Notes under the pieces: generated by a model
Database searches by the model: none
What the model was told of the DNA's origin: nothing
Seen by the model: the letters and a program-made list of their open reading frames with translations, nothing else
Position numbers and translations under genes: made by a program
In this document: positions 1-62,597 of the stretch, in pieces
How the letters are laid out: each line of letters starts with the position of its first letter
How positions within the stretch are numbered: position 1 is the first letter of the stretch
DNA from: a virus
Strand: one strand, 5' to 3'
IMG/VR virus record: IMGVR_UViG_3300037470_000672
Coordinates: 1 to 64,000 of that record
DNA length: 64,000 nucleotides

Positions 1-2
1 AT

Positions 3-419
3 GTCTCGGAATTCCAAAGATCCGAGCATCTTTTCAACCGGCTTGAAGTTGGGGAACGCCTTCCGAAGGTTCTCTGCCAAGTCTCGGAATTCCAAAGATC
101 CGAGCATCTTTTCAACGTGGTTGGCTTGCAAGAAGCCTGTGCGCAACAAGCGCACGAGGTCTCGGAATTCCAAAGATCCGAGCATCTTTTCAACATCCCG
201 ACGATCGCCGGCCTCTCGTCGCTCGCCTCCGAGTCTCGGAATTCCAAAGATCCGAGCATCTTTTCAACGCCGCGCTTGCTCTTCGGCGTGGGCCTTCCAC
301 TGTGTCAGCAGTCTCGGAATTCCAAAGATCCGAGCATCTTTTCAACGTGAGGTCATGCTGCCGGCCGATGCCGTGCCACTTCTGTCTCGGAATTCCAAAG
401 ATCCGAGCATCTTTTCAAC
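3..419 (-). CRISPR. CRISPR array, 6 identical 36-bp repeats and 5 complete spacers (42, 42, 38, 42, 37 nt); probably continues left of the window
   Basis: GTCTCGGAATTCCAAAGATCCGAGCATCTTTTCAAC at 3, 81, 159, 233, 311 and 384. Hairpin CTCGGA/TCCGAG. AT-rich leader-like sequence follows at 420-460. Minus orientation is inferred from the Cas12m-type layout (hairpin followed by AC at the 3' end) and from the cas12-adjacent array. Confidence 0.97.
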
Positions 420-599
420 AGTGTCACCGTAAGTATCTGTTTTTATTTACTCCTTTGCCCTGGTTGCGAGAACCTCGCTTTTGTCTAGTCCAGAACCCAG
501 CGTAGTCACCAGCCTACCCGGGGAAACACAGATCTTTCCACGCCTTTCTCGATGCGAGCGCCTTCCTCGTAGCGACACAGCGCCGAGGCGCTCGCGATT

Positions 600-674
600 T
601 GGTACTGGTGGCAGGATTTGAACCTACGTACGCCCCTTTATGAGAGAGGTGCTAAGCCGCTCAGCTACACCAGC
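600..674 (-). tRNA. tRNA with CAT anticodon (elongator Met or Ile2)
   Basis: Cloverleaf; anticodon arm CCTCT-CTCATAA-AGGGG; T loop TTCAAAT; encoded CCA. Confidence 0.9.
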
Positions 675-677
675 ATG

Positions 678-753
678 TGGTGCCCCGGGCAGGTCTCGAC
701 CCTGCAACCTCCGGCTCTTCAAACCAGCGCTCTTCCACCTGAGCTACCGGGGC
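678..753 (-). tRNA. tRNA-Phe(GAA)
   Basis: Acceptor GCCCCGG/CCGGGGC; loop TTGAAGA; encoded CCA. Confidence 0.92.
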
Positions 754-754
754 A

Positions 755-831
755 TGGAGGACCCGCCGGGACTCTCACCCGGTTGATCCCGATTTGCAGT
801 CGGGAGCCTCGACACCTTCGACCTCGGGTCC
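755..831 (-). tRNA. tRNA-Cys(GCA)
   Basis: Acceptor GGACCCG/CGGGTCC; arm CCCGA-CTGCAAA-TCGGG; U73 then CCA. Confidence 0.88.
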
Positions 832-873
832 TGGCAGCCCCACCAGGCCATGATCCTGGAACCTCCGCCTTCA

Positions 874-909
874 GTCTCGGAATTTCAAGGATCCGAGCAT
901 CCTTTCTTC
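874..909 (-). CRISPR. Solitary CRISPR repeat inside the tRNA operon
   Basis: GTCTCGGAATTTCAAGGATCCGAGCATCCTTTCTTC; first 33 nt match the cas12-adjacent repeat. Confidence 0.9.
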
Positions 910-913
910 TAGT

Positions 914-929
914 CCGCCCGTACGGGCGG
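914..929. repeat. Dispersed palindrome CCGCCCGTACGGGCGG, copy 1
   Basis: Perfect 16-bp palindrome, 4 nt from the solitary repeat. Confidence 0.95.
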
Positions 930-994
930 GTTCAACGAGCACCTGAAGTCGTTGTTGTCGACGCTAGCTATCACCTCCGTTTGCGAAAGATTGC

Positions 995-1082
995 TGGTGT
1001 AGCGGGAGGGACTCGAACCCCCAACCACGAAGGGCCTGCCGGGTTACAGCCGGTGACGTCTGCCAATCGACGCTTCCGCTAC
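995..1082 (-). tRNA. tRNA-Tyr(GTA)
   Basis: Acceptor GTAGCGG/CCGCTAC; loop CTGTAAC; long variable arm; CCA. Confidence 0.92.
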
Positions 1083-1086
1083 ATGC

Positions 1087-1160
1087 TGGCGGCGGGAGAG
1101 GGAGTCGAACCCTCACGCCCGGAACCAAAACCCGGGGTCCTACCGTTAGACGATCCCGCT
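1087..1160 (-). tRNA. tRNA-Gln(TTG)
   Basis: Loop TTTTGGT in a CCGG/CCGG stem; T loop TTCGACT; CCA. Confidence 0.9.
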
Positions 1161-1178
1161 ACATCACGCCGGGGTCAT

Positions 1179-1256
1179 TGGCAGGGGAAGCTGGGAGTCG
1201 AACCCGGAACCTACGGGTTTGGAGGCCGTCGCTCTAGCCAGTTGAGCTACTCCCCT
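1179..1256 (-). tRNA. tRNA-Trp(CCA)
   Basis: Acceptor begins AGGGGAG; loop CTCCAAA; G73 then CCA. Confidence 0.92.
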
Positions 1257-1367
1257 TCAGCCCTGCGGATGTCGCGTTTGGCTGAAGGGGCGTCAGTAGT
1301 GCTGAAACTCCTGACACATGCTCGCCGAGGAACGGATCGGGCGCACGCGAGGCGGATGCATTCCTGA

Positions 1368-1940
1368 TCATGCGGCGAGGCGCACCTCCGGTCGCTTGGT
1401 CGCCGCGTAGTGTTTCCACGCGGCCGGCCATCGCTCGGAAAGCACGAGACCGCGAGTTGCGAGGACGCCACGGAGCCCAGGAGGCTCCCAGGATTGGCCG
1501 GGGAGCTTGACGCGTGTCTGCATCTGCCAGCAGGTGCTCTCGGTGGCGCCGCTGCCGATTGGCAGGTTCGCGGCATACGAGGATGCGTAGCGCATCTTGT
1601 TGCGTCGTCGACGGATGTAGCTGATGGCAGCGGCGACGGCACTGCGCGCCCTGTCGTCGCTGCGTGCGATCTTCTTCGCCATCCGCCTCAGCTTCCGCAG
1701 GATGTTGTCGATGCCGTTGTCCTCCTTCAGCAGCGTCACGCGGTACCAGCCTTTCCAGTCCTGGGGGTCGCCCGGTGGCTCGCAGGCATCGACCACGTCT
1801 TCGAGGTAGCCGACGAGATGCTCGAAGTCGACGAACTCGCACACCTTCATCTCGCTTGGCAGCACGCGGCGAAGGGCTGCCGGCAGCGCCGACAGCTCCG
1901 GCGCCGCGTCTTGAATGCAGTGCAGCGGGATGCTGGTCAT
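1368..1940 (-). pseudogene. C-terminal fragment of an ISKra4/UPF0236-like DDE transposase
   Basis: Motifs VDFEHLVGYL, YIRRRRNKMRY and LPIGSGATES; the N-terminal half is missing. Confidence 0.75.
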
Positions 1941-2014
1941 GGTGCTCTCGTTGGGATAGGGGTCTGTGGTTCTTCGGATGAGGGTACACACAGGTTGTGT
2001 GGGGGTCAACAGAT

Positions 2015-2696
2015 CTACCGAAGCCAGTCAAGATCTCCCCGCAGGTACTCCTTGAGCCGATGCTTCTTCCCCGTACGCTCGCAGGTCACTACCCCGTCCT
2101 GTGTGCGCACAGTTCTGCACTTGTCACCTCGTTGGCCCGTTCCAACCTGAGTCTTGCGCGTGATTCCACGAGCCTGCGCTGCTTCCTGCTGAGCCCGCTG
2201 CTGGAGCTTCGCCGCGAGTGCGGCCAAGGCGTAAGCGCGGTTCTGGTGTTGGCTACGTTCGCTCTCTGAGCGCGTGACGATGCCGGTGGGGAGGTGAGTA
2301 GCCCGCACCGCGGAGTCGGTCTTGTTACGGTGCTGTCCGCCCGCACCGGTCGATCGGTACGTGTCGATCTGGATGTCCCGCATGTTGAGCTGGACTTCCG
2401 GCTTCTCCGGCTCTGGCAGGACGGCGACGGTCACGGTTGAGGTGTGAACCCGGCCGCGTTTTTCGGTGGGAGGGATCCTTTGCCACCTATGGCCGCCTGG
2501 TTCGGTTTCGGCGAGCTGGCGAGCGCCTTTGCCCACAATGCGGAGGGCCACGAAACCCGGGTGCTGTTCTAGGAGAGCGACCTCAAAGCCCCCTCCGCCC
2601 CGCGTAGCGAAGGTAGATGTCCATCTGGTCCTCGACGAGGAGTTTGGCATCATCGCCGCCTTCTGCGGCACGGATTTCTAGGATCACGGCTTCCAT
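2015..2696 (-). CDS. Class I peptide chain release factor homologue (RF1-type PxT motif, GGQ), about 226 aa, needing a +1 frameshift at 2583-2588
   Basis: Frame 1: SD AGGAGG then MEAVILEIRAAEGGDDAKL...YAGRRGL-stop. The +1 frame continues EVALLEQ...HRWQRIPPTEKRGRVHTS...GAGGQHRNKTDSAVR. Confidence 0.9.
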
Positions 2697-2727
2697 GATC
2701 GGCCTCCTGTTGATCAGCATAGCAAGC

Positions 2728-2803
2728 TGGTGCGCCGAGCAGGACTCAAACCTGCGGCCTCTCGTTCCGGAGACGAGCGCTCTGTTCGCTGAGTTACCGG
2801 CGC
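2728..2803 (-). tRNA. tRNA-Arg(CCG)
   Basis: Arm CTCGT-CTCCGGA-ACGAG; acceptor GCGCCGG/TCGGCGC; CCA. Confidence 0.9.
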
Positions 2804-2856
2804 ACGGTGCGCGTTCGCGCGTGCTCAGCGGCGATGGTGTCGTCTTCCATTCCTTA

Positions 2857-3297
2857 CTACTTGTGATCTTTACGACACACACGCTTGGTTTTATTTCTCG
2901 CTCTCCATGCCCTGCGGTACACCCTACTATGTTCGTTCCACGCATTCTTGCAAGGCTCGCATCTACACTTGTGATGCGAGTACCTAGTAAGGGTACCATG
3001 GACAGAGGTCGGACCTGGGTGCGACTTTCTAAGGTTATCCGCTGGTGACAGTATTTGCAGATTTTCTATGTCGTCATTGGTGAAATCGCCGTCGATGTGG
3101 TCTACGTGCTCTTCCTGTCCAAGAAGTCGTCCAAGGTGGACTGACATAAGGTACCTTGCCAAGCTCATAGACCCTCGGTGAGAGTAATCTTTCTTTACGA
3201 GGTGAACGTACCTCCTTTCATTCTTATGGACTGTAGGGCCGTAGACTGTATAACCTTCAAAAGGTGGAGGGGCTGATCTCCCTTTTCTCTCTACCAT
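2857..3297 (-). CDS. HNH endonuclease with C-terminal HGT-x-Y-x-CRC-xx-C motif
   Basis: HVDHIDGDFTNDDIENLQIL HNH motif; HGTLTRYSHHKCRCEPC. Confidence 0.85.
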   Translation of the reverse strand: MVERKGRSAPPPFEGYTVYGPTVHKNERRYVHLVKKDYSHRGSMSLARYLMSVHLGRLLGQEEHVDHIDGDFTNDDIENLQILSPADNLRKSHPGPTSVHGTLTRYSHHKCRCEPCKNAWNEHSRVYRRAWRARNKTKRVCRKDHK

Positions 3298-3342
3298 CTA
3301 AAATCCCATTTAAGATGTCCAAGAGTTTACTCTCACGTTCGG

Positions 3343-3419
3343 TGGGGCCGGTGAAGGTGCTCGAAACCCCATCATGTCCGCTTACAAGGCGGATCGTCTG
3401 CCTCTTGACGTACACCGGC
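3343..3419 (-). tRNA. tRNA-Thr(TGT)
   Basis: Arm TCCGC-CTTGTAA-GCGGA; acceptor GCCGGTG/CACCGGC; CCA. Confidence 0.85.
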
Positions 3420-3439
3420 GCGTTGTCCTCTCTTCCTTC

Positions 3440-3515
3440 TGGATCCTACGACCAGGATCGAACCGGCGACCTCCGCGATACCAGCACGGTGCTCTGCCAT
3501 CTGAGCTACGCAGGC
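3440..3515 (-). tRNA. tRNA-Thr(GGT)
   Basis: Loop CTGGTAT; D arm GCTC/GAGC; T loop TTCGATC; U73 then CCA. Confidence 0.88.
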
Positions 3516-4093
3516 CCACTTGTAGAGACTCTAGACCTAGCCCTTTCCCGAAAGGCCCGCCCCCTTTCGGTATTACCAGCTCGACAAACATCACAGCGGC
3601 ACTTGTGATAGCCGTACATGCTTGCCGTTCCATGATCCGCCTTGCTACGAGGTTTAACCCCTTTCCGTATACGTAGGCTACGATTGTACTCTCGCATGGC
3701 CGATTTACAGGCATCGCAGCGACACTTTTTGTTTACGTACATTACGTACGTACCGTGATCAGAGAATCTTCTACCTAGGTCTTCGACCACGGTTTTCTCA
3801 TTGTGACAAGGACCGCAGAGCAACTGGCAGTTCTTCAGCTCTTCCATCCTTCGAGCATTGTTGACGTAAGCCATCCTGGGGACTTTCATCGTCTTCTTAG
3901 CCCGATCGATGTGGTCAATCTGAAGGTCTTTCTCACTACCACATCGGGCGCACTTTCCCCCCAAGTGGGTTATCATCTCCTTTCGTTTTTCGTGGTATCG
4001 TCTACGCATGTACTCGCGGTAGTAGGCGTTGTACTCCTCTTTGGTCCAGTCTTTGCGCGCCATGCCCCATGGTACGCTGTTAAGACAGGACAT
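3506..4093 (-). CDS. HNH endonuclease with two HGT...CRC-xx-C repeats
   Basis: CARCGSEKDLQIDHID...CQLLCGPCHNEKT (zinc-binding HNH); HGTYVMYVNKKCRCDAC and HGTASMYGYHKCRCDVC. Confidence 0.88.
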   Translation of the reverse strand: MSCLNSVPWGMARKDWTKEEYNAYYREYMRRRYHEKRKEMITHLGGKCARCGSEKDLQIDHIDRAKKTMKVPRMAYVNNARRMEELKNCQLLCGPCHNEKTVVEDLGRRFSDHGTYVMYVNKKCRCDACKSAMREYNRSLRIRKGVKPRSKADHGTASMYGYHKCRCDVCRAGNTERGRAFRERARSRVSTSGPA

Positions 4094-4158
4094 TCAACCG
4101 TTTGTGGTATGGATGCTGTTCCTGTCTAGCTTCGAGCCTTCTTTCCTTTTCAAGTATA

Positions 4159-4234
4159 TGGTGGACTCGATCGGGGTCGAACCGATGACCTTCACCTTGC
4201 AAGGGTGTTGCTCTCCCGACTGAGCTACGAGCCC
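4159..4234 (-). tRNA. tRNA-Ala(TGC)
   Basis: Loop CTTGCAA; acceptor GGGCTCG/CGAGTCC with G3:U70; CCA. Confidence 0.93.
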
Positions 4235-4235
4235 A

Positions 4236-4312
4236 TGGCGGACCAGATGGGAGTCGAACCCACTTCAACCTGTTCGACAAACAGGCGCCTCCTCCGCTTC
4301 GGCTTCTGGTCC
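4236..4312 (-). tRNA. tRNA-Asp(GTC)
   Basis: Arm CCTGT-TTGTCGA-ACAGG; G73 then CCA. Confidence 0.9.
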
Positions 4313-4509
4313 TCGACGTTGTCCCTTCATGCGCCGAACCCCCTCCCCGTCTTCTCGACGGCCAGAGGGGGTTCGATGAACCTGGACGTCGAGATCTGAG
4401 CTAGGTGCGGCTGTCTTCCACGCGCGTATTCCCGCGGGTGAAGATCATGGAGATGGCGGTGCGCTTCGCTTCTGTGAGCACTCGCTCGCTCTCTGTCGAG
4501 GCTTTTCTG

Positions 4510-4586
4510 TGGTCGGGGCGGCGGGATTCGAACCCGCGACTTCCGGTACCCAAAACCGGCGCGCTACCAGCCTGCGCCACACCCCG
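4510..4586 (-). tRNA. tRNA-Pro(TGG)
   Basis: Acceptor begins CGGGGTG; arm CCGGT-TTTGGGT-ACCGG; CCA. Confidence 0.93.
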
Positions 4587-4763
4587 CCGATGCTCGACAG
4601 AGAGCCCGGTAGGTCGTGGGGGTGGTTGGTTGAGCAGGTGCAACATCGCCGTGGGTCCTTGGCCTGTACGTACGTACAGGAGAGCTTTCAGTGTTATCGA
4701 CACACGGATGAGCCTGTCAAGTGATCTTACGGTAAACCCGACCAGACTTCTCCGATCAGGCTA

Positions 4764-5069
4764 TCAGGCCGCACCCTCAGCCGATCGGGGAAACGGAACG
4801 ACCTTCCCGGTGTCCTCTTGCTCTTCCTGCTCCGCTTCTTCGACTGCTGCACGCACATCAGCTTGCTTGAGCGCGGTCGTTGTCACCTTGCGAAGCTTCT
4901 CGTTCTGCTCCTCTCCCTCACAAATTGCTTTGTCGAGGTCGTCGAGAGCTGACATGGCCATGCGGTAACTCTTCGACGCGCCATCCTCAAACCCGCTGTC
5001 CCCTTTGCCGTTCGGTTCTGTGACTTCCTGGTGGAGAGAGGGGGACTTCGGCCGAAAGAGTTTGAACAT
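4764..5069 (-). CDS. Hypothetical protein, 101 aa
   Basis: ORF with upstream GGAG SD; charged, coiled-coil-like composition. Confidence 0.65.
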   Translation of the reverse strand: MFKLFRPKSPSLHQEVTEPNGKGDSGFEDGASKSYRMAMSALDDLDKAICEGEEQNEKLRKVTTTALKQADVRAAVEEAEQEEQEDTGKVVPFPRSAEGAA

Positions 5070-16445: not shown

Positions 16446-16469
16446 CAATCCGCCCGTACGGGCGGATTG
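16446..16469. repeat. Dispersed palindrome CAATCCGCCCGTACGGGCGGATTG, copy 2
   Basis: Perfect 24-bp palindrome, 18 nt past the stop of 16488-16928. Confidence 0.95.
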
Positions 16470-23842: not shown

Positions 23843-23866
23843 CAATCCGCCCGTACGGGCGGATTG
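23843..23866. repeat. Dispersed palindrome, copy 3, inside ORF 23747-23986
   Basis: Perfect CAATCCGCCCGTACGGGCGGATTG. Confidence 0.95.
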
Positions 23867-33870: not shown

Positions 33871-33906
33871 GTCTCGGAATTTCAAAGATCCGAGCATCCG
33901 TTCACC
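33871..33906 (-). CRISPR. Solitary CRISPR repeat
   Basis: GTCTCGGAATTTCAAAGATCCGAGCATCCGTTCACC, 40 nt past the stop of 33947-34174. Confidence 0.9.
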
Positions 33907-33946
33907 GTGAAAACGGCGCCACAGAGGCGGGTGGCAGGACAACCAA

Positions 33947-34174
33947 CTAGGCGGCTGAGGGCGGAGTGAAGCCAGGGTCTGTCGGCTCCCCCGCAAGCCC
34001 CTCCAAGAGGACGAGCTTGCCGTCCTTCTCGGAGAAGACTTGCTCAGCCTCGGCCGCTACCTCGTGAGCAGTAACCGCCAGCATCTTCAGCCGGGACAGT
34101 CCAGGCTGAATGGCGCCCTCACGGCGGAGCAACTCGGCGAATGTGAGCGCCTGAAGCATCTCTTGGCGGGTCAC
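33947..34174 (-). CDS. Hypothetical protein, 75 aa
   Basis: GTG start overlapping the stop of the upstream ORF. Confidence 0.6.
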   Translation of the reverse strand: MTRQEMLQALTFAELLRREGAIQPGLSRLKMLAVTAHEVAAEAEQVFSEKDGKLVLLEGLAGEPTDPGFTPPSAA

Positions 34175-34323
34175 TGATCGTCATCCTCGTCGTCTGCCGG
34201 CGAAGGCTTCTGCCGCTTCTGCTTCTTGGGGTCAGCCTCCTTGGCGTCTTCGGTCAAGGGCTTCCCGCTTGGGTAGGGCATGTCCTCGGTGATCATTTCG
34301 CCACTGGGTCTGGGCTGGACCAT
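34171..34323 (-). CDS. Hypothetical protein, 50 aa (not in the ORF track)
   Basis: GGAGG-6nt-ATG; MVQPRPSGEM...SPADDEDDDQ; its stop overlaps the next start. Confidence 0.6.
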   Translation of the reverse strand: MVQPRPSGEMITEDMPYPSGKPLTEDAKEADPKKQKRQKPSPADDEDDDQ

Positions 34324-34345
34324 CGAATCCTCCGTAGTTGTCCTG

Positions 34346-34381
34346 GTCTCGGAATTTCAAGGACCTGAGCATCCACTCAAG
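34346..34381 (-). CRISPR. Solitary degenerate CRISPR repeat in a gene junction
   Basis: GTCTCGGAATTTCAAGGACCTGAGCATCCACTCAAG; overlaps the stop of 34377-34739 and lies 22 nt upstream of the ATG at 34323. Confidence 0.85.
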
Positions 34382-34739
34382 CGACCGCAGGCATCCAGCG
34401 AAACCCCATGAACTGAAAGATCCTGCGCAGCTCCTTGGTGAGCTTCAAACGGTCTTTCTCCGTCTTCACCTTCACCGTGTGCAGGTATTCACAATCGGTC
34501 CGCGACGGGGCGTCCAGAACCAGGCGCACCGACACCAAGCCGGAGTCCAAGCAGCGCAACTCACCTCGGAAATCTCGGTTCGCAACCAACGTGAAATCGA
34601 CCCCCACACCCGGCAAACCTCGCTTCCGAGTGCACAAAAGGTCCAAGCCGAACATCTCCAGCACAGACAGGAGCCGAGCCATGTTCTGGCCGCTCAGGGC
34701 GTCGCTCTTCAATCTTCGTAAGACCTCAGATAACGGCAC
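34377..34739 (-). CDS. Hypothetical protein, 120 aa
   Basis: ORF between two repeats. Confidence 0.6.
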   Translation of the reverse strand: MPLSEVLRRLKSDALSGQNMARLLSVLEMFGLDLLCTRKRGLPGVGVDFTLVANRDFRGELRCLDSGLVSVRLVLDAPSRTDCEYLHTVKVKTEKDRLKLTKELRRIFQFMGFRWMPAVA

Positions 34740-34899
34740 TTGAGCGTCCTTTGGATAGAAGAGTCAGGCGAGCGGTCCGTAGCGGCCCTGGGGGGTATGG
34801 ATCGCAGACCGCTCGCCTGACCCAAGCGAGACCAATGGGAAGGTAGGCCCCTACAAAGGGTAGTAGCCACCGTTTTGGTTGTCAAATTCGGGGCTTCTC

Positions 34900-35328
34900 T
34901 CATCGAGCCTCGGTCCAAAACTCCCGAGGACTGATCTGCAAAGCCCTAGCTACCGCCTCCAGCGTTGACACCCGGGTATCGTTTTCTGATGCGTTCAGCA
35001 TCCGATAGAGGCTGCTCCGAGACACCCCCGACCGCTGAGCAAGCGTATCGTAGGTCAAACCGAGCCGGCTCATTCGCTTTTTGACGACCTCGGTGAGACA
35101 AAATTGAAAGGCCACAGCCGATATTTTTTGAACCGGTTGTGCTCGCTTACGGGTGTACAGGCGCTTGCGCCGTTGAATAAGGGCCAAGCTCAGGCGCTTC
35201 ATCCCCCCTTCCGTGAACTCCACATCAACTTGACCCGAGGACGGATGAACAGCCCGGACGATGCCGGGCTGTTTGTCGGAGAGGGTCTCCACCTGGGAGC
35301 CTTCTTTGATGGGCCGGTAGCGGGGCAT
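34900..35328 (-). CDS. XRE-family HTH transcriptional regulator with an N-terminal extra domain
   Basis: RMSRLGLTYDTLAQRSGVSRSSLYRMLN...RVSTLEAVARALQI. Confidence 0.85.
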   Translation of the reverse strand: MPRYRPIKEGSQVETLSDKQPGIVRAVHPSSGQVDVEFTEGGMKRLSLALIQRRKRLYTRKRAQPVQKISAVAFQFCLTEVVKKRMSRLGLTYDTLAQRSGVSRSSLYRMLNASENDTRVSTLEAVARALQISPREFWTEAR

Positions 35329-35342
35329 GCTCTCTTGTCTCG

Positions 35343-35378
35343 GTCTCGGAATTTCAAAGATCCGAGCATCTTTTCAAG
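35343..35378 (-). CRISPR. Solitary CRISPR repeat in the 5' UTR of the XRE gene
   Basis: GTCTCGGAATTTCAAAGATCCGAGCATCTTTTCAAG; 14 nt from the ATG at 35328. Confidence 0.92.
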
Positions 35379-35571
35379 ACAACAAACAACTCATCACACG
35401 CCAGCTCGGCCGCGTGCGACCATGTCCGTCCGTCGTCCGGGTCTTCACTTCGCGTGACATACTCCAGCTTCTGGACTGCTTTGAGCAGTTTCCCTAGCTT
35501 GGCGCAGGGACTGCAAAGCGCCAGCGGCGCGTTGCAGTCGCCGCAGAAAGCGCACTCGGACTCGGAGCTGC

Positions 35572-35919
35572 TCATGCGCCGTCTCCGGCGTCTTTGCGGA
35601 TCCAATCCTCCGCAGCCTCCAGCCCGTCGATTGCATCCTTGATGTCCCGATCTTGAATGAAGCGCATCACCTGCTCTTCACCATCTCGCTGCCGCACCCT
35701 GCCGACCGAGACAGAGTACATGCGGCCGTTCTGCCCCTCCGCCGTCTGTACCTGGGTACGAACGTGACCGAAGTCGAAGTTGGTGGCGTTTTGCCACTCC
35801 AAACGGGGGCGCGGTGTACGCGCGGCGTACCCACCCTGCGACCGATCGCTGTACCCCTCCTGTGAGGGGTTCCCGTTGTACGACAGATTACTGTTTTGAC
35901 GGTGGTTCCTCTTGCCCAT
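35572..35919 (-). CDS. Hypothetical protein, 115 aa
   Basis: ORF behind a TTGACA-16-TATAGT promoter at 35957-35984. Confidence 0.65.
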   Translation of the reverse strand: MGKRNHRQNSNLSYNGNPSQEGYSDRSQGGYAARTPRPRLEWQNATNFDFGHVRTQVQTAEGQNGRMYSVSVGRVRQRDGEEQVMRFIQDRDIKDAIDGLEAAEDWIRKDAGDGA

Positions 35920-36413
35920 GGTCTTGTGTTTCCCTCAGTCGTTGGGTGCCGGCTTGACTATACGCAGGACGCTTGGTGTGTCAAGCACGGTACAGGAAAA
36001 ACGCCGTACACGGCGCCAGTTCAGTTTTCTGGATCGGGTTCGGGTGATGCGGAGGGTGGGACCAACTCCTGGAAGCGGGGAGCGATTATTCCTTCCAGCT
36101 CTTCCAATCGCCCATGGACACGTAGTCCTTGGGACACCTGCTCAGCGATGCGCGCCAGACACTTGGTTCGCCCGCAGAAACATAGATTGTTGGGCTCGTC
36201 CGTCATGTGTCTCCCGGAAGGTTCCCATGGTCCACGAAGTGTTGGAGCAATGGAAGCAACACGGCTACTTGCCAGCGCGTCAGAAGCGACCGACGTCGCC
36301 GTCGCGCGCGGCCTCACGCAGCTCCGCGCATGCTTCGAGCTGATCTTCCAACTCCGCGACGCGCTGTTCGAGGTCTTTCACATCGAAAGCGCTCATGCGC
36401 TTCTTTGAGGAGA

Positions 36414-36443
36414 AAGGGGAGCGCTCCGCAGAGCGCTCCCCTT
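36414..36443 (-). terminator. Probable terminator downstream of ardC
   Basis: 13-bp stem AAGGGGAGCGCTC/GAGCGCTCCCCTT with a 4-nt loop. Confidence 0.75.
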
Positions 36444-36452
36444 GGTTAAGGG

Positions 36453-37424
36453 TCATGCCGCCATCAGGCAGGCGTTCTCGGCCTTGAGTCGCTCGATTTC
36501 GGCCTTCATCTCGGCCAGGGTCATCTCGCTGGCTTTCTTGTCCTTGGCCGGCTTGGGCGCCTGCTCCTCGACGAAGGTGAGGATCTCTGCCGTCGCCTTC
36601 TGCACCCGGTCCGCCACCTTCTCGACCTTCTCCGGGTCGGAGCCGCTCCAGTGCGCGACGTAGCCAAAGGAGTAGCTGGCAGAGTCGACCCCCAGCGCGC
36701 TCATGACGCAGTAGGCCACGCTCTCGGCCTCCACCTCGCGGTAGTCCGTGGGGGTGTGGCACAAGCCCGACTCCTTGCTGTGCAGGATGACGTGGGCCAG
36801 CTCGTGGGCCAGGGTCTTGGCCTGCTGTGCCGGGCTGTTGGCCTCGTTGAGCGCGATGCGCTTCTCCGAGAAGACCACGTAGCCGCCCATGCCGTCGATC
36901 ATGCGCTCGGTCTCGATCGTGTAGCCCTTCTTTTGGGCCAGGTTGCTGAGCGCCGTGAACGCGAGGTCAGCGGCCGGAGACGAGCCGTCGAGGGTCTGGA
37001 TGACGTCCAGCTCGGGCAGGTCCGGACCCTCGGTCTGCGCGATGTCGTAGACGAAGACGGTCTTGAAGAATCGAACGAAGCGGTAGGGCTTCTCCTGCCC
37101 GTCTTCCGTCCGCTTACCCCAGCCGAAGATGGGGGCGCGGATGGCGATCTTTTTCTCGCTGGCCTTCACCCGACGACCGGTGCGGGTCTCCCACTGCCGA
37201 CGCCCCATGACGCGCGAGGCGCCCGGACGCTGGAGGTGGATGAGGAGCTGGTTGGTCCAGGAATACTTCCAGAACATCGCCTGGAAGGCGAGGAACTGGA
37301 CCCAGGCGTTCGAACCGATGAGCGCTTCGACGCCGCGCTTCATCTGCTCGACGAGGTCTTTCGCCTCGCTCTCCTTCTGGGCTTTGAACTGCGCCTTCTG
37401 GTCGGGAGTGAACTGCTTGCCCAT
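36453..37424 (-). CDS. ardC: ArdC-family ssDNA-binding antirestriction protein with a metallopeptidase-like C-terminal domain
   Basis: YSWTNQLLIHLQRP...QW...GRRVK.SEK; TLAHELAH; EVEAESVAY. Confidence 0.85.
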   Translation of the reverse strand: MGKQFTPDQKAQFKAQKESEAKDLVEQMKRGVEALIGSNAWVQFLAFQAMFWKYSWTNQLLIHLQRPGASRVMGRRQWETRTGRRVKASEKKIAIRAPIFGWGKRTEDGQEKPYRFVRFFKTVFVYDIAQTEGPDLPELDVIQTLDGSSPAADLAFTALSNLAQKKGYTIETERMIDGMGGYVVFSEKRIALNEANSPAQQAKTLAHELAHVILHSKESGLCHTPTDYREVEAESVAYCVMSALGVDSASYSFGYVAHWSGSDPEKVEKVADRVQKATAEILTFVEEQAPKPAKDKKASEMTLAEMKAEIERLKAENACLMAA

Positions 37425-37438
37425 CGTCTATCCTCCTT

Positions 37439-37496
37439 CAGCGATCCTTCGCTGATCTGATTTGACAATCGTAGTCCTACAGTGTTTGTGTGTCAA
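37439..37496 (-). promoter_or_regulatory. Sigma70-type promoter with hairpin leader (ardC)
   Basis: TTGACA-17-TACGAT; CAGATCAGCGA-AGGA-TCGCTG-AAGGAGG. Confidence 0.88.
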
Positions 37497-38173
37497 GCAC
37501 GGATCCGAAAAAGATCAGATCTGCGTGTGCGCGCGGTCACCGTCCACAAAGAAGAACCCCCGGCGACGCTCACTGCGGCCGGGGGCTTTCCTCTGTGTGT
37601 ACTCACACCAGTTCGGGGCGGTCGTAGCCCCAACGCTTAACCGTAGTCCGTTTGCTCAGATCGGTTCGCCCGATGCGCTGTCTTGGGCACGCTAGCCGCC
37701 CAGCTTGCGATCTGACTGTTGGACCGTGGTTGTCCACCGACAAGGTAGAAGAGCATTGCCCGTAGGACGGCTTCAACTCCTTGTTGGCGGGGTGAAAAGC
37801 TACCTTAAACGCGGTCTTTTTCTGGGTCAAGTGTGGGACACAGATCATTTCACCAGTAGGGTCTCGACCAGTGTGGCAAAGCAGATCGCCTTACTCAGCT
37901 CACGGTGAATGATGATGACCTCGGCGAGGCTCCCCGAAGCTGACTTGACGTGGATGACGGTTCTTCCGTCCGAGTACAGGCGGACCATCGCCTCTACACC
38001 GTCCGTCTGGCTGTGGAAGTTGAGGGAGATGCCGCCACTGGCCGAGTCCGGCAGCGTGCCTGCCTCGTAGGCGTCGGCCAAGGCTTCCAGCTCCTCAACC
38101 TCTTCGCGCTGCGGGTAGAAGCCGGAGCAGAGACTGATCTCGCCAAGGCTCTGTCGGAGGAGGCTGTAGTTGA

Positions 38174-38920
38174 TCATGTGCGCCTCGACACGATCGCTTC
38201 GTAGTCCGGCGCGCCCTGGAACTCGATGCTCACGACCGGGCGCTCCTCTTCCGGCAGACTGCGGATGTAGTCGCGGAGCGCGATGGCGGGTTCGTTGGCG
38301 AGGGTCATACCCTCCTCGGGGATCTTCGCCTCGATGTTCTCCAGGTCGAAGCCGGCCTCCTGGAGGGTCGTGAGGGTCTTCTCGTGCTGCTCCTCTTCGT
38401 GCTTCGCGCGCCACTCTTCCTGCTCGCGACGGAACTCCTCGTCACGCTGCTTCGCGCGCTCTTCCATCGCCTCCAAGGCACCAGCAAAGGTCGTGTCGGC
38501 GCTGAGCCCCACCTTCTCCAGGACGCCGAGCACAGCAGCCTCGCGCAGCACCAGGAGCATCTCGTGCTCGTAGACGTGTTGCGGATCGGCGCCCGTCTCA
38601 GCAGGATCGTAGTCCGGCGGGAAGACCGTGAAAGGCTCCGCGACGAAGATCCCTTGGTCACCCGCGTGGTCCGAGGGTCCGTTAAAAACGGTCGGCTCAC
38701 CAGCGTGCTCCCAGCACGCCTCGTGGTAGAGCGCGGCGCTATCAAGCGTCTCGTCCTCTTCGTGACCGATGTTGCCGTAGCCGTCGTAGGTCCCCTTGCA
38801 AACCGAGCCGTCTGGCAGGATGGCCACGGCCTGCTGCATCCAGTCCCGGTAACCGGCCGCCGAATACCCAGAGCGAATCGACCGGCCACAGCTCTTGCAG
38901 TTCCACGAGAAGAAACCCAT
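38174..38920 (-). CDS. Hypothetical protein, 248 aa
   Basis: MGFFSWNCKSC...GTYDGYG phage-type N-terminus. Confidence 0.75.
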   Translation of the reverse strand: MGFFSWNCKSCGRSIRSGYSAAGYRDWMQQAVAILPDGSVCKGTYDGYGNIGHEEDETLDSAALYHEACWEHAGEPTVFNGPSDHAGDQGIFVAEPFTVFPPDYDPAETGADPQHVYEHEMLLVLREAAVLGVLEKVGLSADTTFAGALEAMEERAKQRDEEFRREQEEWRAKHEEEQHEKTLTTLQEAGFDLENIEAKIPEEGMTLANEPAIALRDYIRSLPEEERPVVSIEFQGAPDYEAIVSRRT

Positions 38921-38932
38921 CTTGACCTCCTT

Positions 38933-38990
38933 CAGCGATTCATCGCCGATCTGTTTTTACAAGCCTAAACGTATTGGATACGTAGGGCAA
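38933..38990 (-). promoter_or_regulatory. Sigma70-type promoter with hairpin leader
   Basis: TTGCCC-17-TAGGCT; CAGATCGGCGA-TGAA-TCGCTG-AAGGAGG. Confidence 0.75.
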
Positions 38991-39041
38991 GCACAAAGCG
39001 GGTGTTTGGAGCCGATCTGTTGTGACGGGCGCCCCACCTAA

Positions 39042-39065
39042 CAATCCGCCCGTACGGGCGGTTTG
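39042..39065. repeat. Dispersed palindrome, copy 4
   Basis: CAATCCGCCCGTACGGGCGGTTTG immediately after the stop of 39070-39279. Confidence 0.95.
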
Positions 39066-39069
39066 GGTC

Positions 39070-39279
39070 CTACTTACCTAGCGTCGCAGCTGGCTTCGCG
39101 GTTGGCTTCTCAGCCAGCTTCTGACCAGCGTCCTTCTGCGGCGTCGGTCCGGCGTCAGTCCTGGGCTCGACCGGCGCCTCTTCTTTGGCGGGAGCCTCAG
39201 CGGATTTGTCCGCCTTGGGGGTGCAGGCGATGAGCGCCAGCGCCGAGAGATTGAGACCGATGAGCAGAATGCGCAGCAT
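39070..39279 (-). CDS. Small predicted lipoprotein
   Basis: Signal peptide ending LALIAC. Confidence 0.7.
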   Translation of the reverse strand: MLRILLIGLNLSALALIACTPKADKSAEAPAKEEAPVEPRTDAGPTPQKDAGQKLAEKPTAKPAATLGK

Positions 39280-39321
39280 GTGGAACCTCCATGCGCCGTC
39301 TGCTCCCTCGGGCCTGGACGT

Positions 39322-39993
39322 TCAAGGGGGTTCACGGAGTCCGATGCGGACCTTGAGCCGGTAGGACAACACCAACGAATTCGTACCGAAATCCTTGAAA
39401 ATCGCCTCGGTGACGAAGCGCAGACCCCCGGGTGTAGTGATGGCGGGAGCGATCTCGTACTCGGTCATCGCCAGGGACAGGGTGGTCACGCCGTCGCCGA
39501 GCAACGCCTCATCCTCGACGTAGGCGATCTCAACAGGGGCCGCGCCCTCGGCGCTCACGTACAAGGTGATGTCCTCAAAGAGGGTGGTGATGCTGCGCTC
39601 GTACTGTTCCACCATCTCGAAGGCGACGAACCTGGCTGATTCGATGTCGTCCATGCTGCGCCCAGCTTCTTGTATCCGGGCACGGATGGCGGCGTTCAGG
39701 GCGAACCCGACCTCGGGCGGGACGGTGTTCTCGGGGTAGAGGGGGTAGTACACATTGGACGCGGCAGGGTGGATGTCGTCGTTGTAGCCGTTGATCTGGA
39801 TCAGCTCATCCATCTCGACCTCGACGTACAGCAGGTCGGGGTCGTCTTCGGCTACGACGCCTTGGCCGGGGCCGGCGTCACTCTGTTGGGTCGGATCTGT
39901 ACCGCAGGCGCAAAAAGCCAGGGCGACGAACGGATAGAAGATAAGGGCTCTGTGCATCGTGGCCTCCTGACAGTACAAGAAGCACGTTAACAC
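39322..39993 (-). CDS. Predicted lipoprotein, myxobacterial style
   Basis: MHRALIFYPFVALAFCACG lipobox-like segment followed by SDAGP. Confidence 0.7.
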   Translation of the reverse strand: MLTCFLYCQEATMHRALIFYPFVALAFCACGTDPTQQSDAGPGQGVVAEDDPDLLYVEVEMDELIQINGYNDDIHPAASNVYYPLYPENTVPPEVGFALNAAIRARIQEAGRSMDDIESARFVAFEMVEQYERSITTLFEDITLYVSAEGAAPVEIAYVEDEALLGDGVTTLSLAMTEYEIAPAITTPGGLRFVTEAIFKDFGTNSLVLSYRLKVRIGLREPP

Positions 39994-40097
39994 ATGCCGT
40001 CAAGGGCGCGAAAGCAAAGGGGAAATCTCTAGAAGTCTCCGGAACGTAAAACCCCTTACCTCAGAGAAAGATGGCGGAGAGCGGTGGTCCTGATCCA

Positions 40098-40133
40098 GTC
40101 TCGGAATTTCAAGGATCCGAGCATCCTTTCAAC
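40098..40133 (-). CRISPR. Solitary CRISPR repeat downstream of the second tRNA cluster
   Basis: Identical to the cas12-adjacent repeat, GTCTCGGAATTTCAAGGATCCGAGCATCCTTTCAAC. Confidence 0.95.
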
Positions 40134-40204
40134 ATCCATAACGCATGCGCGTCCTGACGGGTAGCAGCCGTAGCCCGGGCCTCCCGGGTTCACTCTCCAC
40201 AGGT

Positions 40205-40289
40205 TGGCAGCGGGCAGCGGAATCGAACCACGACGCCTAAGCGCCCTCCAGTTTTCAAGACTGGTCGCTCCCCATGAGCAGTACCCGCT
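40205..40289 (-). tRNA. tRNA-Ser(TGA)
   Basis: Arm CCAGT-CTTGAAA-ACTGG; long variable arm; G73 then CCA. Confidence 0.88.
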
Positions 40290-40297
40290 TCATGTAG

Positions 40298-40389
40298 TGG
40301 TGGCCCGAGCGAGAGTCGAACTCGCATGCCCCTCACAAGGCACCAGGGTCTGAGCCTGGCGTGTCTACCGGAAATTCCACCATCGGGCC
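40298..40389 (-). tRNA. tRNA-Leu(CAG)
   Basis: Arm CCAGG-CTCAGAC-CCTGG; long variable arm; CCA. Confidence 0.9.
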
Positions 40390-40393
40390 ATTG

Positions 40394-40466
40394 TGCGGAC
40401 GGCAGGAGTCGAACCTGCACTGACCGGGATTTGACGCCGGACCCTCTGCCGTTGGGGTACGTCCGC
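40394..40466 (-). tRNA. Atypical tRNA, most likely anticodon CAA (Leu), with a short variable loop
   Basis: Acceptor GCGGACG/CGTCCGC; T arm GCAGG-TTCGACT-CCTGC; anticodon arm CCGGC-GTCAAAT-CCCGG with a C:C pair; no encoded CCA. Confidence 0.7.
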
Positions 40467-42015
40467 TAAGATTTCTCCTTCCAGCAGGCGCACTGAGGCG
40501 GGCGGTGATACGTACACCACGGCTCCGTTAGCCGGGCTTGCGTGACCGTGCTCTCCTGCGCCTCTCCCTGCGCGCAGCTCAATGGGAGGCATGCCGTACT
40601 TGGCGTGCAACAGCAGCTCCTTGCCCTCCGCTTTGGCTACCCGCCGAACCGTCTTCCAGATGCGCGCCGTCTCAGCGCGTAGATCGACCCCAGGGCGTGC
40701 CTCCCAAAGCGCCCGCTTACGCTCCCTGGCCGCCTCCTGGGCGGCGCAGCGTTTGGTCCGCTGCTTGGCTCGGACCCTGGCAGCTCGCTCGGCTTGCGCT
40801 GTCTGACGCGCCTCTTTCTTGGCTTCGATGGTTGGACAAGCGCGCTTCACGAGCCTGCCGGTCTTGTCGGAGCACGGTAGGCAGTAGCGGCGGGTATCGT
40901 CCAGGCGAGGTTTGCTCGGGGCGAGCTTACCCGTCTCGCAGCGGGGGCAGACCCAGCGTCTCACGCGGCGGGCTTCTTCCGGGTCTTGTAGGTGGCCTTG
41001 AGCGTGTCGAACAGGTCGGTGTTGTCGAGCATCGCAACGAAAGCGTCGAGGGATGTGCGGTCGATGGTGACGCGATCGACGGTACCGCTGACGGTGCCCA
41101 TGAGACCGCCGGATACGGGAAGCCCGATTTCTTCGAGGCGCTTGCGCTGCGCGTACCACTCGGTGTTGTAGGTCTCGACACGTGCCATCTTGCGCAAGTG
41201 CTCCTCGCGCGTACGCGCCTGCTTTTCACCCTGCTGCTGAACGTACTCGTCCCAGGGCATCAGGACTTCTTGCGGTCGCGCGACCCCGGAGAGCCACTCT
41301 TTGGGTGCGCCGCGGCACAGAGCGACGTTGATGCCCTTCCCTCCGGACCGTTCCTTGGCCCAGCACCCGCGGATATTTCCCACGTAGCCGTCGAAGCCGA
41401 GAATGATCCCCTTCCTCACGTGGCGGAAACCAGCTTTGGTCGAGATGCCGATGGCGTACGTCTCGCCGATCTGGATGTCTTTGCGTTTCATGCCCAGCTC
41501 ACTCCCAGGTCCAACTCCTGGGCCTTTTGCAGTACCTCATCCAACCGCTCCAGGCGGTCTGTGAGGCGGTTGTCGTCGTAACCGCACAGGATGTGCCGCC
41601 CCGATCGTCGGAGGGCCACGGTGCCGTCCTCCTGGGGAACGGTTCGCATCTCGCCACCGTAGGTCTCGGTCTCGGTGCGGAAGGGGGCGCGGACCTTGTC
41701 CTGGTTGAGCGCGCGCATGATAGCGCGGCGCATGTTGGCCACCTCTTCGGCGGGGACCGACCCGCGCAGATCTGGGTCCGCGTACCCCAGCATCCGGAGA
41801 AGGACCACAGCCGTGCGATTGGCCACATTGAGCGAGCACTCGGACTCGCTGTAGGTCACCCACCCACCCTGACAGGACGCACAACCCCACTCGGGAACGG
41901 GCACGCCGTCCGCCTCAGCGAACTCGCGCGTCTGCTCGCAAAGGAAACAATGCTCCCGTACCTCTTGCTTGGGGCCGTCGGTGGGGCAGAAAGTAACGCT
42001 CATGAGGAACCTCTT

Positions 42016-42071
42016 CAGGGAGTCTTCTCTGATCTGAGCTTGAGTATAGACAACGTAAGTGATCAGAGCAA
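42016..42071 (-). promoter_or_regulatory. Sigma70-type promoter with hairpin leader
   Basis: TTGCTC-17-TATACT; CAGATCAGAGA-AGAC-TCCCTG-AAGAGG. Confidence 0.72.
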
Positions 42072-42137
42072 GCCTGATCTGCGTGTAGGTGGTGTTTTTT
42101 TTTCTACTGCCTCGACGTTCGAGATATTCTACGGCTA

Positions 42138-42173
42138 GTCTCGGAATTTCAAAGATCCGAGCATCTTTTCAAC
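42138..42173 (-). CRISPR. Solitary CRISPR repeat
   Basis: GTCTCGGAATTTCAAAGATCCGAGCATCTTTTCAAC; about 34 nt of unique sequence and then an A9 run follow on the minus strand. Confidence 0.95.
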
Positions 42174-42178
42174 ACACT

Positions 42179-42201
42179 CAATCCGCCCGTACGGGCGGAT
42201 C
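42179..42201. repeat. Dispersed palindrome, copy 5
   Basis: CAATCCGCCCGTACGGGCGGATC, 5 nt from the repeat. Confidence 0.95.
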
Positions 42202-43356
42202 ACATCTCGTCATCGCAGTAGCTCCTCCCCGTCCTTGTAGACGGCGTTCGCCAGCATGTCCGACTCGTTGCGAGGGTAGGAAGAGGTGGAGCTGTTCCAC
42301 GCCTTCTCGCGCAGCGCCTTTTTGCTGGGCGGACGCCAGCGGGGCGGCATCTCGTAAGCGCTGCGCAAGCGGTGGTGGAAGTTCTGCTGCGGCCCCGGAA
42401 TGTCGTGCCGAGCTGCACCAGACCAGGCAAGCTCACCTTTCTTGGCAAGCCAGTCGAGGGCAGCCTTGCGGGAGGATAGCCGCACAACCTTCGTCTCGGG
42501 GTGGCGCAGGTCGGTCGTCTGCTCGATGCCGTAGAAGACGGTCATCAGTTCGTTCTTCCTTTTTTCATCTCGGCCATGAGGAGGTCAGCTTGGACGGCGG
42601 TCTCTTCAGGAGAGAGGTCTGAAGTACCGCCTCGCTGGCAGCGCTCCCCCATGACGATCAACAGCTCCCGGACCTCGTTATCGGTCCATTGCTGAGGCTT
42701 TCCCGCGCGGTAAGTGTCGAGGAGTTTCTCCAGCGCGCTACTCTCCTCATCGGCCGCGAAACCAAGCGCTGCGGCCTCTTCCTGGAGGGAAAGAAGAAGC
42801 TGCACCTCCTGTCGGCGCTTGTCCAGCTCGCACTCCCACGCAACGATCTTGTTGGCAAGCGTCTTCGCCCTTTCTGGGTCCAAACGATCGACGAACCGTC
42901 TGAACCAGAAATCGCTCCGTTTCGTTGCGAGCTTGTCCGGGTATGTCACTCCTGACCCGCCTCAGTAACGATGATCTTGGGCACCGGTTCATCACCACAT
43001 TGGAACGGCTCGCTTGAAGCGATCGGTCGGGTATCCAGCCCCTCCGTGTAGAACTGGTGCCGAATGACTTGGACGACATCGAATGCGGCCCGGTGCGCAT
43101 TGGGGACCAGAGGGTTGTGGATGCTCGGTCCCCCGCTGGCGAAGTATGCCCCGCCCCCCATCCAGTTGACGATCTGGTGAAGCACGTCACGCGCTTCTGC
43201 CAACCCGTCGACGTAGCCCGGAAGATGCTGCGTGTTGTCGAGGACCGCGCTGGCAAGCTGTCCCATGCCCAAACGCGCCAGCGTGTCACACGCTTGCATG
43301 ATGGCACGCGCCTGACCCTCGGTCAGCTCCAGCCGGTACAGCTTCGTCATGCTCTG

Positions 43357-43385
43357 ACTATAGGCGCGCTATGTTATAGCGTCAA
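43357..43385 (-). promoter_or_regulatory. Sigma70-type promoter
   Basis: TTGACG-17-TATAGT. Confidence 0.75.
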
Positions 43386-43467
43386 GCCGGGGCTACCTGA
43401 TCTTGCGTTGTCGGAGGTTGTTCCAGGTTCTATCGGACCACTCCAGCAGGGGCAGGGAAGAAGCTCT

Positions 43468-43503
43468 GTCTCGGAATTTCAAGGATCCGAGCATCCATTT
43501 AAC
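43468..43503 (-). CRISPR. CRISPR repeat downstream of the type IV-B operon; possible decayed partner at 43559-43586
   Basis: GTCTCGGAATTTCAAGGATCCGAGCATCCATTTAAC; 55 nt away is GTCTCGGcgAATTTttGGATCCGAcacc. Confidence 0.9.
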
Positions 43504-55988: not shown

Positions 55989-56172
55989 GTATCGGAATTC
56001 CATATATCCGAGCATCTTTTCATCCCCACGCACGCCTCGAACGCCCGTAGCTGCCCACTCGTGTCTCGGAATTTCAAGGATCCGAGCATCCTTTCAACCA
56101 GTCGAGCTACCGCACGGCGACGGTCGCGTCGCTCTTGTCTCGGAATTTCAAGGATCCGAGCATCCTTTCAAC
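55989..56172 (-). CRISPR. Mini-array of 3 repeats and 2 spacers of 38 nt directly downstream of the cas12 gene
   Basis: Repeats at 56137 and 56063 (identical) and at 55989 (degenerate, distal). The first repeat is 23 nt from the cas12 stop. Confidence 0.95.
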
Positions 56173-62521: not shown

Positions 62522-62561
62522 CGACGCGCTGTCAGCAACACCAACCCGAGCCGTCTTAGGT

Positions 62562-62597
62562 GTCTCGGAATTTCAAGGATCCGAGCATCCTTTCCGG
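62562..62597 (-). CRISPR. Solitary CRISPR repeat facing the plus-strand repeat across 40 nt
   Basis: GTCTCGGAATTTCAAGGATCCGAGCATCCTTTCCGG. Confidence 0.92.

Follow-up and report, generated by a model that had tools for sequence, protein, structure and literature searches.

A single CRISPR repeat on the minus strand of a soil phage genome is followed by exactly 42 nt (873-832) and then by base 1 (831) of a tRNA-Cys gene; 42 nt is also the commonest spacer length in the main CRISPR array of the same phage. The question raised by this locus is whether the tRNA stands in for a second repeat, with RNase P, which cleaves at the 5' end of tRNAs, setting the 3' end of a natural tRNA-delimited crRNA, as a preliminary description of the sequence proposed.

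The phage genome and its Cas12m system

The source phage is represented by a contig of 175,906 bp with 60% G+C (an IMG/VR virus record), and the window, which is the whole stretch of DNA analysed here, is its first 64 kb. The main array runs into one contig end and overlaps the other, so that window positions 1-142 correspond to genome positions 175765-175906; one of the two ends carries a shorter array variant in which the first spacer is joined directly to the fifth. This overlap, together with the shorter variant, makes it probable that the genome, although its record is classed as linear, is circular or circularly permuted and complete or nearly so, and that the population contains variants of the array length. 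Gene calls are crude throughout; according to them, 207 of the 216 genes of the whole genome lie on the minus strand and only 17% of the sequence is intergenic. The recognizable products are a portal, a head-tail adaptor, a UvsX-like recombinase, ribonucleotide reductase, RNase H and a release-factor-like protein. At least 17 metagenome runs from soil and sediment contain DNA of this phage, and among the 23 public runs that contain it no RNA run is listed. Logan DNA contigs from four runs, compared over positions 1-5000, represent the same strain and break at repeats and tRNAs; no listed contig piece from these four runs spans 751-871.

The genome encodes one Cas12-type effector (Table 1). Its alignment to the Cas12m of PDB 23vw extends over residues 18-544, it also matches the Cas12m structures 8pm4 and 23vu, and its C-terminal zinc-ribbon matches the Pfam family Cas12f1-like_TNB (41.8 bits). 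Acidic residues occupy the three RuvC motif positions, as judged by eye from the alignment to Cas12m. Cas12m binds DNA without cutting it (PMC10442227, PMC11013384), and D-E-D variants of Cas12m are likewise without DNA cutting (PMC11013384). A search of the whole 175.9-kb record gave no match to Cas1. On the sequence criteria of effector homology, array and repeat fold, and a missing adaptation module, the phage system is a member of type V-M.

The genome has two arrays. Spacers in the main array measure 37, 42, 38, 42 and 42 nt, in agreement with the range of 37-42 nt given earlier, and those in the three-repeat mini-array 38 and 38 nt; the degenerate last repeat of the mini-array ends 11 nt before the start codon of the next gene. 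One effector is accompanied by two repeat variants, one in the main array (1-419) and the other in the mini-array (55989-56172) and most solitary copies. The variants differ by a compensatory stem pair and one linker base, and some solitary copies are intermediate between them.

In published systems, a Cas12m crRNA begins with a 5' handle that derives from the repeat and folds into a stem plus pseudoknot, with the guide on its 3' side (PMC10442227), and the Cas12m proteins cleave their own pre-crRNA within the repeat (PMC11013384, PMC10442227). Mature crRNAs are 50-60 nt long, and the guide-target duplex is only 17 bp (PMC10442227, PMC11013384). In the Cas12m2 crRNA, which is built of a pseudoknot and a stem, the 5' end is disordered (PMC10442227).

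Anatomy of the lone repeat and tRNA-Cys

The arrangement given in the preliminary description is confirmed by the repeat match and by an Rfam match to the tRNA, and the tRNAs, the lone repeat and the main array all lie on the minus strand, as had been stated. The 28-nt core of the lone repeat (874-901, minus strand) has two mismatches to the array repeat, against a chance expectation of 0 matches. Its 3' 29 nt are identical to the two intact mini-array repeats, with the difference limited to the 5' few bases; the 31-nt pseudoknot scaffold at its 3' end is intact, with degeneracy in the 5' few bases. We found no consensus promoter in the repeat, and the downstream -10 positions do not fit, so we rejected the possibility that it acts as a promoter.

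Table 1. Positions of the features discussed, numbered from the first base of the window
Feature	Position	Strand	Remarks
Main CRISPR array, six identical 36-nt repeats	1-419	-	Repeat starts 384, 311, 233, 159, 81, 3
Leader, from tRNA-Met to first array repeat	420-599	-	A/T-rich beside repeat; no consensus promoter found
tRNA-Phe (678-753) and tRNA-Met (600-674)	600-753	-	Directly downstream of tRNA-Cys
tRNA-Cys	755-831	-	Anticodon GCA, discriminator U, encoded CCA at 757-755, atypical T-loop
Unique 42-nt segment in spacer position	832-873	-	Would be guide part plus 5' leader of pre-tRNA-Cys
Solitary Cas12m repeat (crRNA handle, mini-array variant)	874-909	-	nhmmer E 6.7e-13
GC-rich perfect palindrome	914-929		4 nt upstream of lone repeat; 1 of 14 identical intergenic copies
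tRNA-Tyr, tRNA-Gln, tRNA-Trp	995-1257	-	Upstream of lone repeat, same strand
Five further solitary repeats	33871-43503	-	Starts 33871, 34346, 35343, 42138, 43468
Solitary repeat	40098-40133	-	71 nt downstream of second tRNA cluster
Three-repeat mini-array	55989-56172	-	Directly after cas12m; last repeat degenerate
cas12m, 592 aa	56196-57974	-	Only Cas12-type gene in genome; E 2.2e-80 to PDB 23vw Cas12m
Facing pair of solitary repeats	62486-62597		62486-62521 plus, 62562-62597 minus; 40 nt between

The tRNA-Cys gene was overlooked both by ARAGORN and by a filtered Rfam pass; the Rfam tRNA model places it at minus-strand positions 758-831 (39.4 bits, gathering score 29, E = 9.5e-7). Its T-loop is non-canonical, while the 7-bp acceptor stem and the 5-bp T stem are perfect, and these two stems are what RNase P needs in a substrate. 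Between the handle, the 42-nt segment and the tRNA, which share one strand, no consensus promoter or terminator is predicted. It had also been proposed that guide output is tied to a strong tRNA operon; this putative link is drawn from the shared orientation and the lack of predicted promoters and terminators.

The 42-nt segment itself is non-coding and unconstrained, whereas most of the other handle tails bear ribosome sites. Its fold is not unusual (z = -1.2 against shuffled sequence). We considered whether it might be the 3' remnant of a tRNA, with a hairpin and a CCA end, and rejected this because no matching 5' half is present and in view of the same fold score.

The lone repeat separates two sub-clusters of tRNA genes, Trp-Gln-Tyr and Cys-Phe-Met; the gaps between adjacent tRNAs of the cluster measure only 1-18 nt. 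Detection of tRNAs depended on the method: a tRNA at 40301-40389 (minus strand) scores 49.9 bits with Rfam and was not seen by ARAGORN, and tRNA-Tyr (995-1082) and tRNA-Ser (40205-40289) were reported by ARAGORN and not by the filtered Rfam pass. As each program adds tRNAs to the other's set, the phage total is 15 tRNAs rather than 13, all of them in two clusters. The large tRNA cluster also encloses a gene (2015-2671, minus strand) for a 218-aa release-factor-like protein with PCRF and RF-1 domains.

The palindrome close to the lone repeat has a 16-bp core, usually extended to 22 bp by A/T flanks, and its 14 copies are identical and apparently lie between genes. Six are in the window (914-929, 16450-16465, 23847-23862, 39046-39061, 42183-42198 and 62461-62476), with eight more up to genome position 173916. 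Three of them (914, 42183 and 62461) are found 4-9 nt upstream of a solitary Cas12m repeat. The element might serve as an operator, as a terminator that lacks a U-tail or, in RNA, as a hairpin to which a protein binds.

Search for a target of the 42-nt segment

Because a Cas12m crRNA is read in the order handle-guide, the repeat and the 42 nt that follow it are in the right order for the latter to act as a guide. The preliminary description called for a search for its target, and we found none in the phage itself, in IMG/VR, in GTDB genomes or among known phages and plasmids. Within the phage genome, the first 20 nt of the segment have no match at up to four mismatches, and the full 42 nt give no seed match of at least 11 nt across the 175.9 kb. 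The first 20 nt yielded 0 exact 20-mers in IMG/VR and four in GTDB genomes, although searches of this exact-word kind overlook mismatched targets. All four GTDB matches stop at base 20, and they represent two independent events where about one is expected by chance. Three of the four lie in one conserved Firmicutes gene, which is an implausible target for a soil phage of 60% GC. BLAST of the array and the lone unit against known phages and plasmids returned only tRNA similarity.

The same holds for the other candidate guides. Across all 29 handle tails and spacers there is no self-target beyond chance; the best self match, that of the tail at 33871 (17 of 20 positions at 76523-76542), is within expectation for the number of searches. 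The true array spacers likewise yielded no target.

RNase P is expected to cut at 832/831, provided that the tRNA is made and folded, and Cas12m is expected to bind an intact handle, which makes an RNA consisting of the handle and 42 nt a fair prediction. We therefore regard a handle-plus-42-nt RNA that ends at 832 as a plausible product of the locus. Since a 17-bp duplex and crRNAs of 50-60 nt are the rule for Cas12m, a precise 3' boundary given by a tRNA is not needed. Thus the geometry, the order of the elements and a plausible RNase P product remain from the proposal of a tRNA-delimited crRNA, but not the idea that the tRNA replaces the second repeat by design: the genome has about 20 solitary handles and only one of them is joined to a tRNA, and a guide of about 17 nt suffices. 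Recruitment of the tRNA by selection to set the 3' end of a guide is not supported.

A genome-wide family of solitary handles

Fuzzy matching combined with an HMM built from the copies identified 20 solitary repeats in the 175.9-kb genome, besides the six-repeat array and the three-repeat mini-array. Nineteen of the 20 are on the minus strand, which is the sense strand of nearly all genes, and 17 are outside called genes. The copy at 40098, which had been reported to follow a tRNA cluster, does so (Table 1). A search with nhmmer for decayed second repeats after the lone copies found none. A tRNA follows the handle at 874 and none of the other solitary handles.

To describe what lies downstream, we used a set of 21 handles: the 20 solitary repeats without the plus-strand copy at 62486, together with the terminal repeat of each of the two arrays. 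In 12 of these, a start codon is found 10-26 nt downstream, often with a purine-rich ribosome site in between, although this closeness is partly forced by the short intergenic gaps and rests on the crude gene calls. With a start codon at that distance, the ribosome-binding site occupies the position where a guide would begin. A further five handles are followed by 100-135 nt of non-coding sequence before the next gene. Genes downstream of handles include those for a transcriptional regulator, the head-tail adaptor, the gene after the portal and the recombinase; this variety indicates that handles are not limited to one module. Several handles stand directly 3' of a hairpin or terminator-like element.

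The 3' 31 nt of the handle are conserved and can form a possible 6-bp stem and 5-bp pseudoknot, for which 90.5% of cells are paired across 21 distinct copies. One pair of this scaffold alternates between G:C and A:U across the copies, and the first five bases vary freely. Retention of the scaffold while the 5' bases are free is the pattern expected under selection on an RNA handle rather than on the DNA sequence as such. The layout of the scaffold agrees with that of the Cas12m2 crRNA (PMC10442227).

The facing pair at 62486-62597 stands between a palindrome and a clear intrinsic terminator. In a transcript of either strand, one handle would be followed by a 40-nt tail and then by the antisense of its partner; such transcripts could form a long hairpin or two complementary guides. 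In the head module, the solitary repeats at 126270-126305 and 127873-127908 (L012 2270-2305 and 3873-3908), downstream of the portal, fall inside crude ORFs, which means either that these gene calls are overlong or that the handles lie within coding sequence.

Solitary repeats in other Cas12m phages

A profile search identified Cas12m on 67 IMG/VR contigs (loci L023-L088), several of which are 150-200 kb long. A preprint of September 2026 described Cas12m in one myxophage as the first case in a phage and did not mention lone repeats (10.64898/2026.09.14.751636). Contrary to that claim, the presence of Cas12m on 67 viral contigs indicates that it is not rare in phages.

Three other Cas12m phages were examined in full. 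One of them (G001; 109.7 kb, with terminal repeats) has a Cas12m that is 33% identical to the effector studied here and a repeat of unrelated sequence. It carries an array and eight solitary repeats. Although 36% of the genes of this phage lie on the other strand, every one of the eight is intergenic and points the same way as the transcription unit around it. One of them lies inside the only tRNA cluster of that phage; a small ORF follows after 27 nt, and the next tRNA is 171 nt downstream. In the two other complete Cas12m phages (G004 and G007), no lone repeats were found near tRNAs. Not every Cas12m phage has solitary handles: they are missing from one of 188 kb, and in one of 180 kb repeats are found only beside cas12m. 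Lone repeats are associated with tRNA clusters in three of three clusters in two phages, and a rough estimate that allows for placement in non-coding sequence only (P ~ 0.07) makes this association no more than suggestive.

It had been suggested that repeat-spacer-tRNA units be sought in related phages. There were none: among 26 cas12m neighbourhoods with a definable repeat, no repeat is paired with a tRNA within 300 nt. Patterns of the repeat and of the tRNA-Cys each gave 0 matches in IMG/VR and JGI metagenomes, and no relative was found for the neighbouring ORF 1368-1991. As the collections searched hold no close relatives, conservation of the distance could be checked only in distant ones, where it is not kept.

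In the 109.7-kb phage, two of the solitary repeats (L001 9760-9875; G001 35790-35879) lie about 120-190 nt upstream of cas12m, with the array downstream, which is a possible autoregulatory arrangement. This phage also has a tRNA-like gene (L007 3208-3286; Rfam 39.9 bits) whose anticodon loop contains an insertion of 12 nt; the solitary repeat of the tRNA cluster follows 14 nt downstream of this gene.

A proposed role of handles as marks in phage transcripts

The reading that we favour, at a probability of about 0.5, is that the lone repeat belongs to a set of about 20 Cas12m handles on the sense strand, which serve as punctuation in the transcripts of the phage. In its favour are the size of the handle family and its strand and position bias, the start codons that follow many handles, the conserved scaffold, the presence of a Cas12m effector and the independent recurrence of intergenic, co-oriented solitary repeats in the 109.7-kb phage. 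Judging from the sequence, we infer that the phage's own Cas12m would recognize and bind each handle in the transcript and would probably cut just 5' of it, as in a pre-crRNA, so that handles would serve as effector-dependent punctuation marks and as 5' end-caps for the RNA that follows. Where a handle stands 10-26 nt before a start codon, with the ribosome site in the position of the guide, bound Cas12m could control translation, and the hairpins or terminator-like elements that precede several handles could protect the upstream cut product. At 909-874, a cut by Cas12m and one by RNase P would release the handle with 42 nt, ending at 832; this crRNA-like RNA would be a by-product and at most an opportunistic guide.

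Several observations stand against punctuation. Solitary handles do not occur in every Cas12m phage, their degenerate 5' ends in the present phage might indicate that they are bound but not cut, and the exact gap of 42 nt, the commonest spacer length, is left unexplained. Nor would punctuation by itself require 42 additional bases in a cluster where 1-18 nt separate one tRNA from the next. The spacing is compatible with an origin as a repeat-spacer unit that was split from the array by a tRNA cassette. That punctuation does not account for it keeps the tRNA-delimited idea alive, at about one chance in five.

In its strongest form that idea, which we consider unlikely, is that the locus is a hard-wired gene for a single-guide crRNA, with a tRNA instead of a second repeat and an RNase P end at 832, through which Cas12m would silence a target of the host or of a competitor by binding its DNA. 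The order of handle and guide is right for Cas12m (PMC10442227), the gap has the length most common among main-array spacers, the tRNA-Cys has intact acceptor and T stems, all parts are on the same strand with no predicted terminator between them, and the 42 nt, unlike most other handle tails, are non-coding and unconstrained. However, no target was found in the phage, in IMG/VR or among known phages and plasmids, and the GTDB matches are near chance; a guide of about 17 nt would be enough, which leaves the tRNA boundary without obvious gain; none of the other Cas12m phages checked showed this geometry; and the argument concerns a single case that was chosen after the fact. Less probable again is a scheme that joins this idea to the punctuation reading: Cas12m-read marks in which handles and tRNAs cooperate, and which at this site, with a 5' end made by Cas12m and a 3' end made by RNase P, would give a guide coupled to the tRNA operon that silences a gene of the host or of a rival phage.

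Just as doubtful is an explanation in terms of competition between phages, according to which a repeat is inserted beside native DNA and the phage's own sequence, at this site the natural 5' flank of tRNA-Cys, becomes a guide against close relatives that lack the insertion, while the repeat, by taking up the PAM position, spares the phage's own copy. In keeping with it, most handle tails are plainly native, as they consist of the ribosome sites and first codons of phage genes, and the sequence places the 3' end of the repeat at the PAM position of every such self site. The collections searched nevertheless hold no relative that is close enough to be a target (0 matches in IMG/VR and JGI metagenomes): the best relative of the phage Cas12m is 48% identical, and the best portal relative is 49% identical and without repeats.

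The least probable reading is that the lone repeat has no present function and is a leftover repeat-spacer unit (for example, after a tRNA cassette dropped into an older array), a recombination scar or an RNA decoy of the anti-CRISPR type: removal of 423-831 (three tRNAs and the leader) would indeed bring the lone repeat and its 42 nt up against the first array repeat as a regular array, and solitary viral repeats are known as RNA anti-CRISPRs (PMC10651486), but the handle is intact and of the mini-array rather than the main-array variant, the drift of the 5' ends against a scaffold retained in all 20 solitary copies speaks for selection, and this phage, unlike known carriers of RNA anti-CRISPRs, encodes the cognate effector.

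Relation to known systems

Published Cas12m systems are described as consisting of an array and an effector on plasmids, prophages or chromosomes (PMC10442227, PMC11013384). With type V-M as represented by MmCas12m2, GoCas12m and MsCas12m (PMC10442227, PMC11013384), the phage system shares full-length effector homology, 36-nt repeats with a 3' stem plus pseudoknot, crRNAs of the handle-guide order, the lack of adaptation genes and a mobile-element carrier. It differs from them in having about 20 single handles spread over 176 kb, intergenic and in transcript sense, one of which precedes a tRNA. No published description of Cas12m handles dispersed through a phage genome was found in the literature searched.

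In mitochondria, tRNAs punctuate polycistronic transcripts, and the processing enzyme defines the ends of the neighbouring RNAs. The favoured reading of the phage handles resembles this, in that tRNAs and CRISPR handles would mark RNA ends side by side; by analogy, the proposed reader here would differ in being a phage-encoded CRISPR effector. If the punctuation reading is true, a CRISPR effector would act as a viral RNA-processing or translation-control factor, a role outside defence and outside the known DNA-binding silencing by Cas12m. At the tRNA-adjacent copy, the cleavage predicted for Cas12m at the handle and for RNase P at 832 would produce a small RNA of defined size.

Engineered tRNA-gRNA units also place an RNA of guide length against a tRNA, an arrangement in which RNase P would make the 3' end of that RNA; they include polycistronic arrays, an icrRNA in Haloferax that is released by tRNA-like elements (PMC4326828) and an engineered Cas12a crRNA caged by a tRNA-like structure (PMC6037731). 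Those units are man-made, whereas the phage unit is natural and single, no target was found for it and its 5' end would be made by Cas12m instead of by a second tRNA. No natural tRNA-delimited crRNA was found in the literature searched. Should the RNA work as a guide, it would be the first of this kind, and the tRNA-gRNA trick of genome engineering would have pre-existed in nature; if it is not a guide, the locus still helps to define a recurring and undescribed feature of phages that bear Cas12m.

Two natural classes of solitary or degenerate repeats are also similar in part. Racrs (PMC10651486, PMC11656645) are single repeats in virus genomes whose transcripts can load a Cas protein, but they copy a host repeat and act against the host Cas, whereas the phage has its own effector and arrays and many copies at gene junctions. 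As the phage owns a matching Cas12m and two arrays of the same repeat, the lone repeat does not fall into the class of RNA anti-CRISPRs. The guides known as crlRNA, CreR/CreA and long tracrRNA share degenerate or single repeats and a short guide, and they regulate by binding DNA at cas or toxin promoters, not in defence (10.1101/2024.10.29.618823). Guides of this type pair with a promoter, unlike the phage unit, which has no complementary site in its genome.

Irregular arrays at other Cas12m loci

Some other Cas12m loci, on mobile-element contigs, have irregular arrays in which repeat starts are only 42-52 nt or 100-290 nt apart. They are found at L020 5443-5522, 9791-9955, 12369-12666 and 19049-19127, at L021 4420-6790 and at L027 12023-12900; small groups of repeats are also present on both strands, several kb from the effector.
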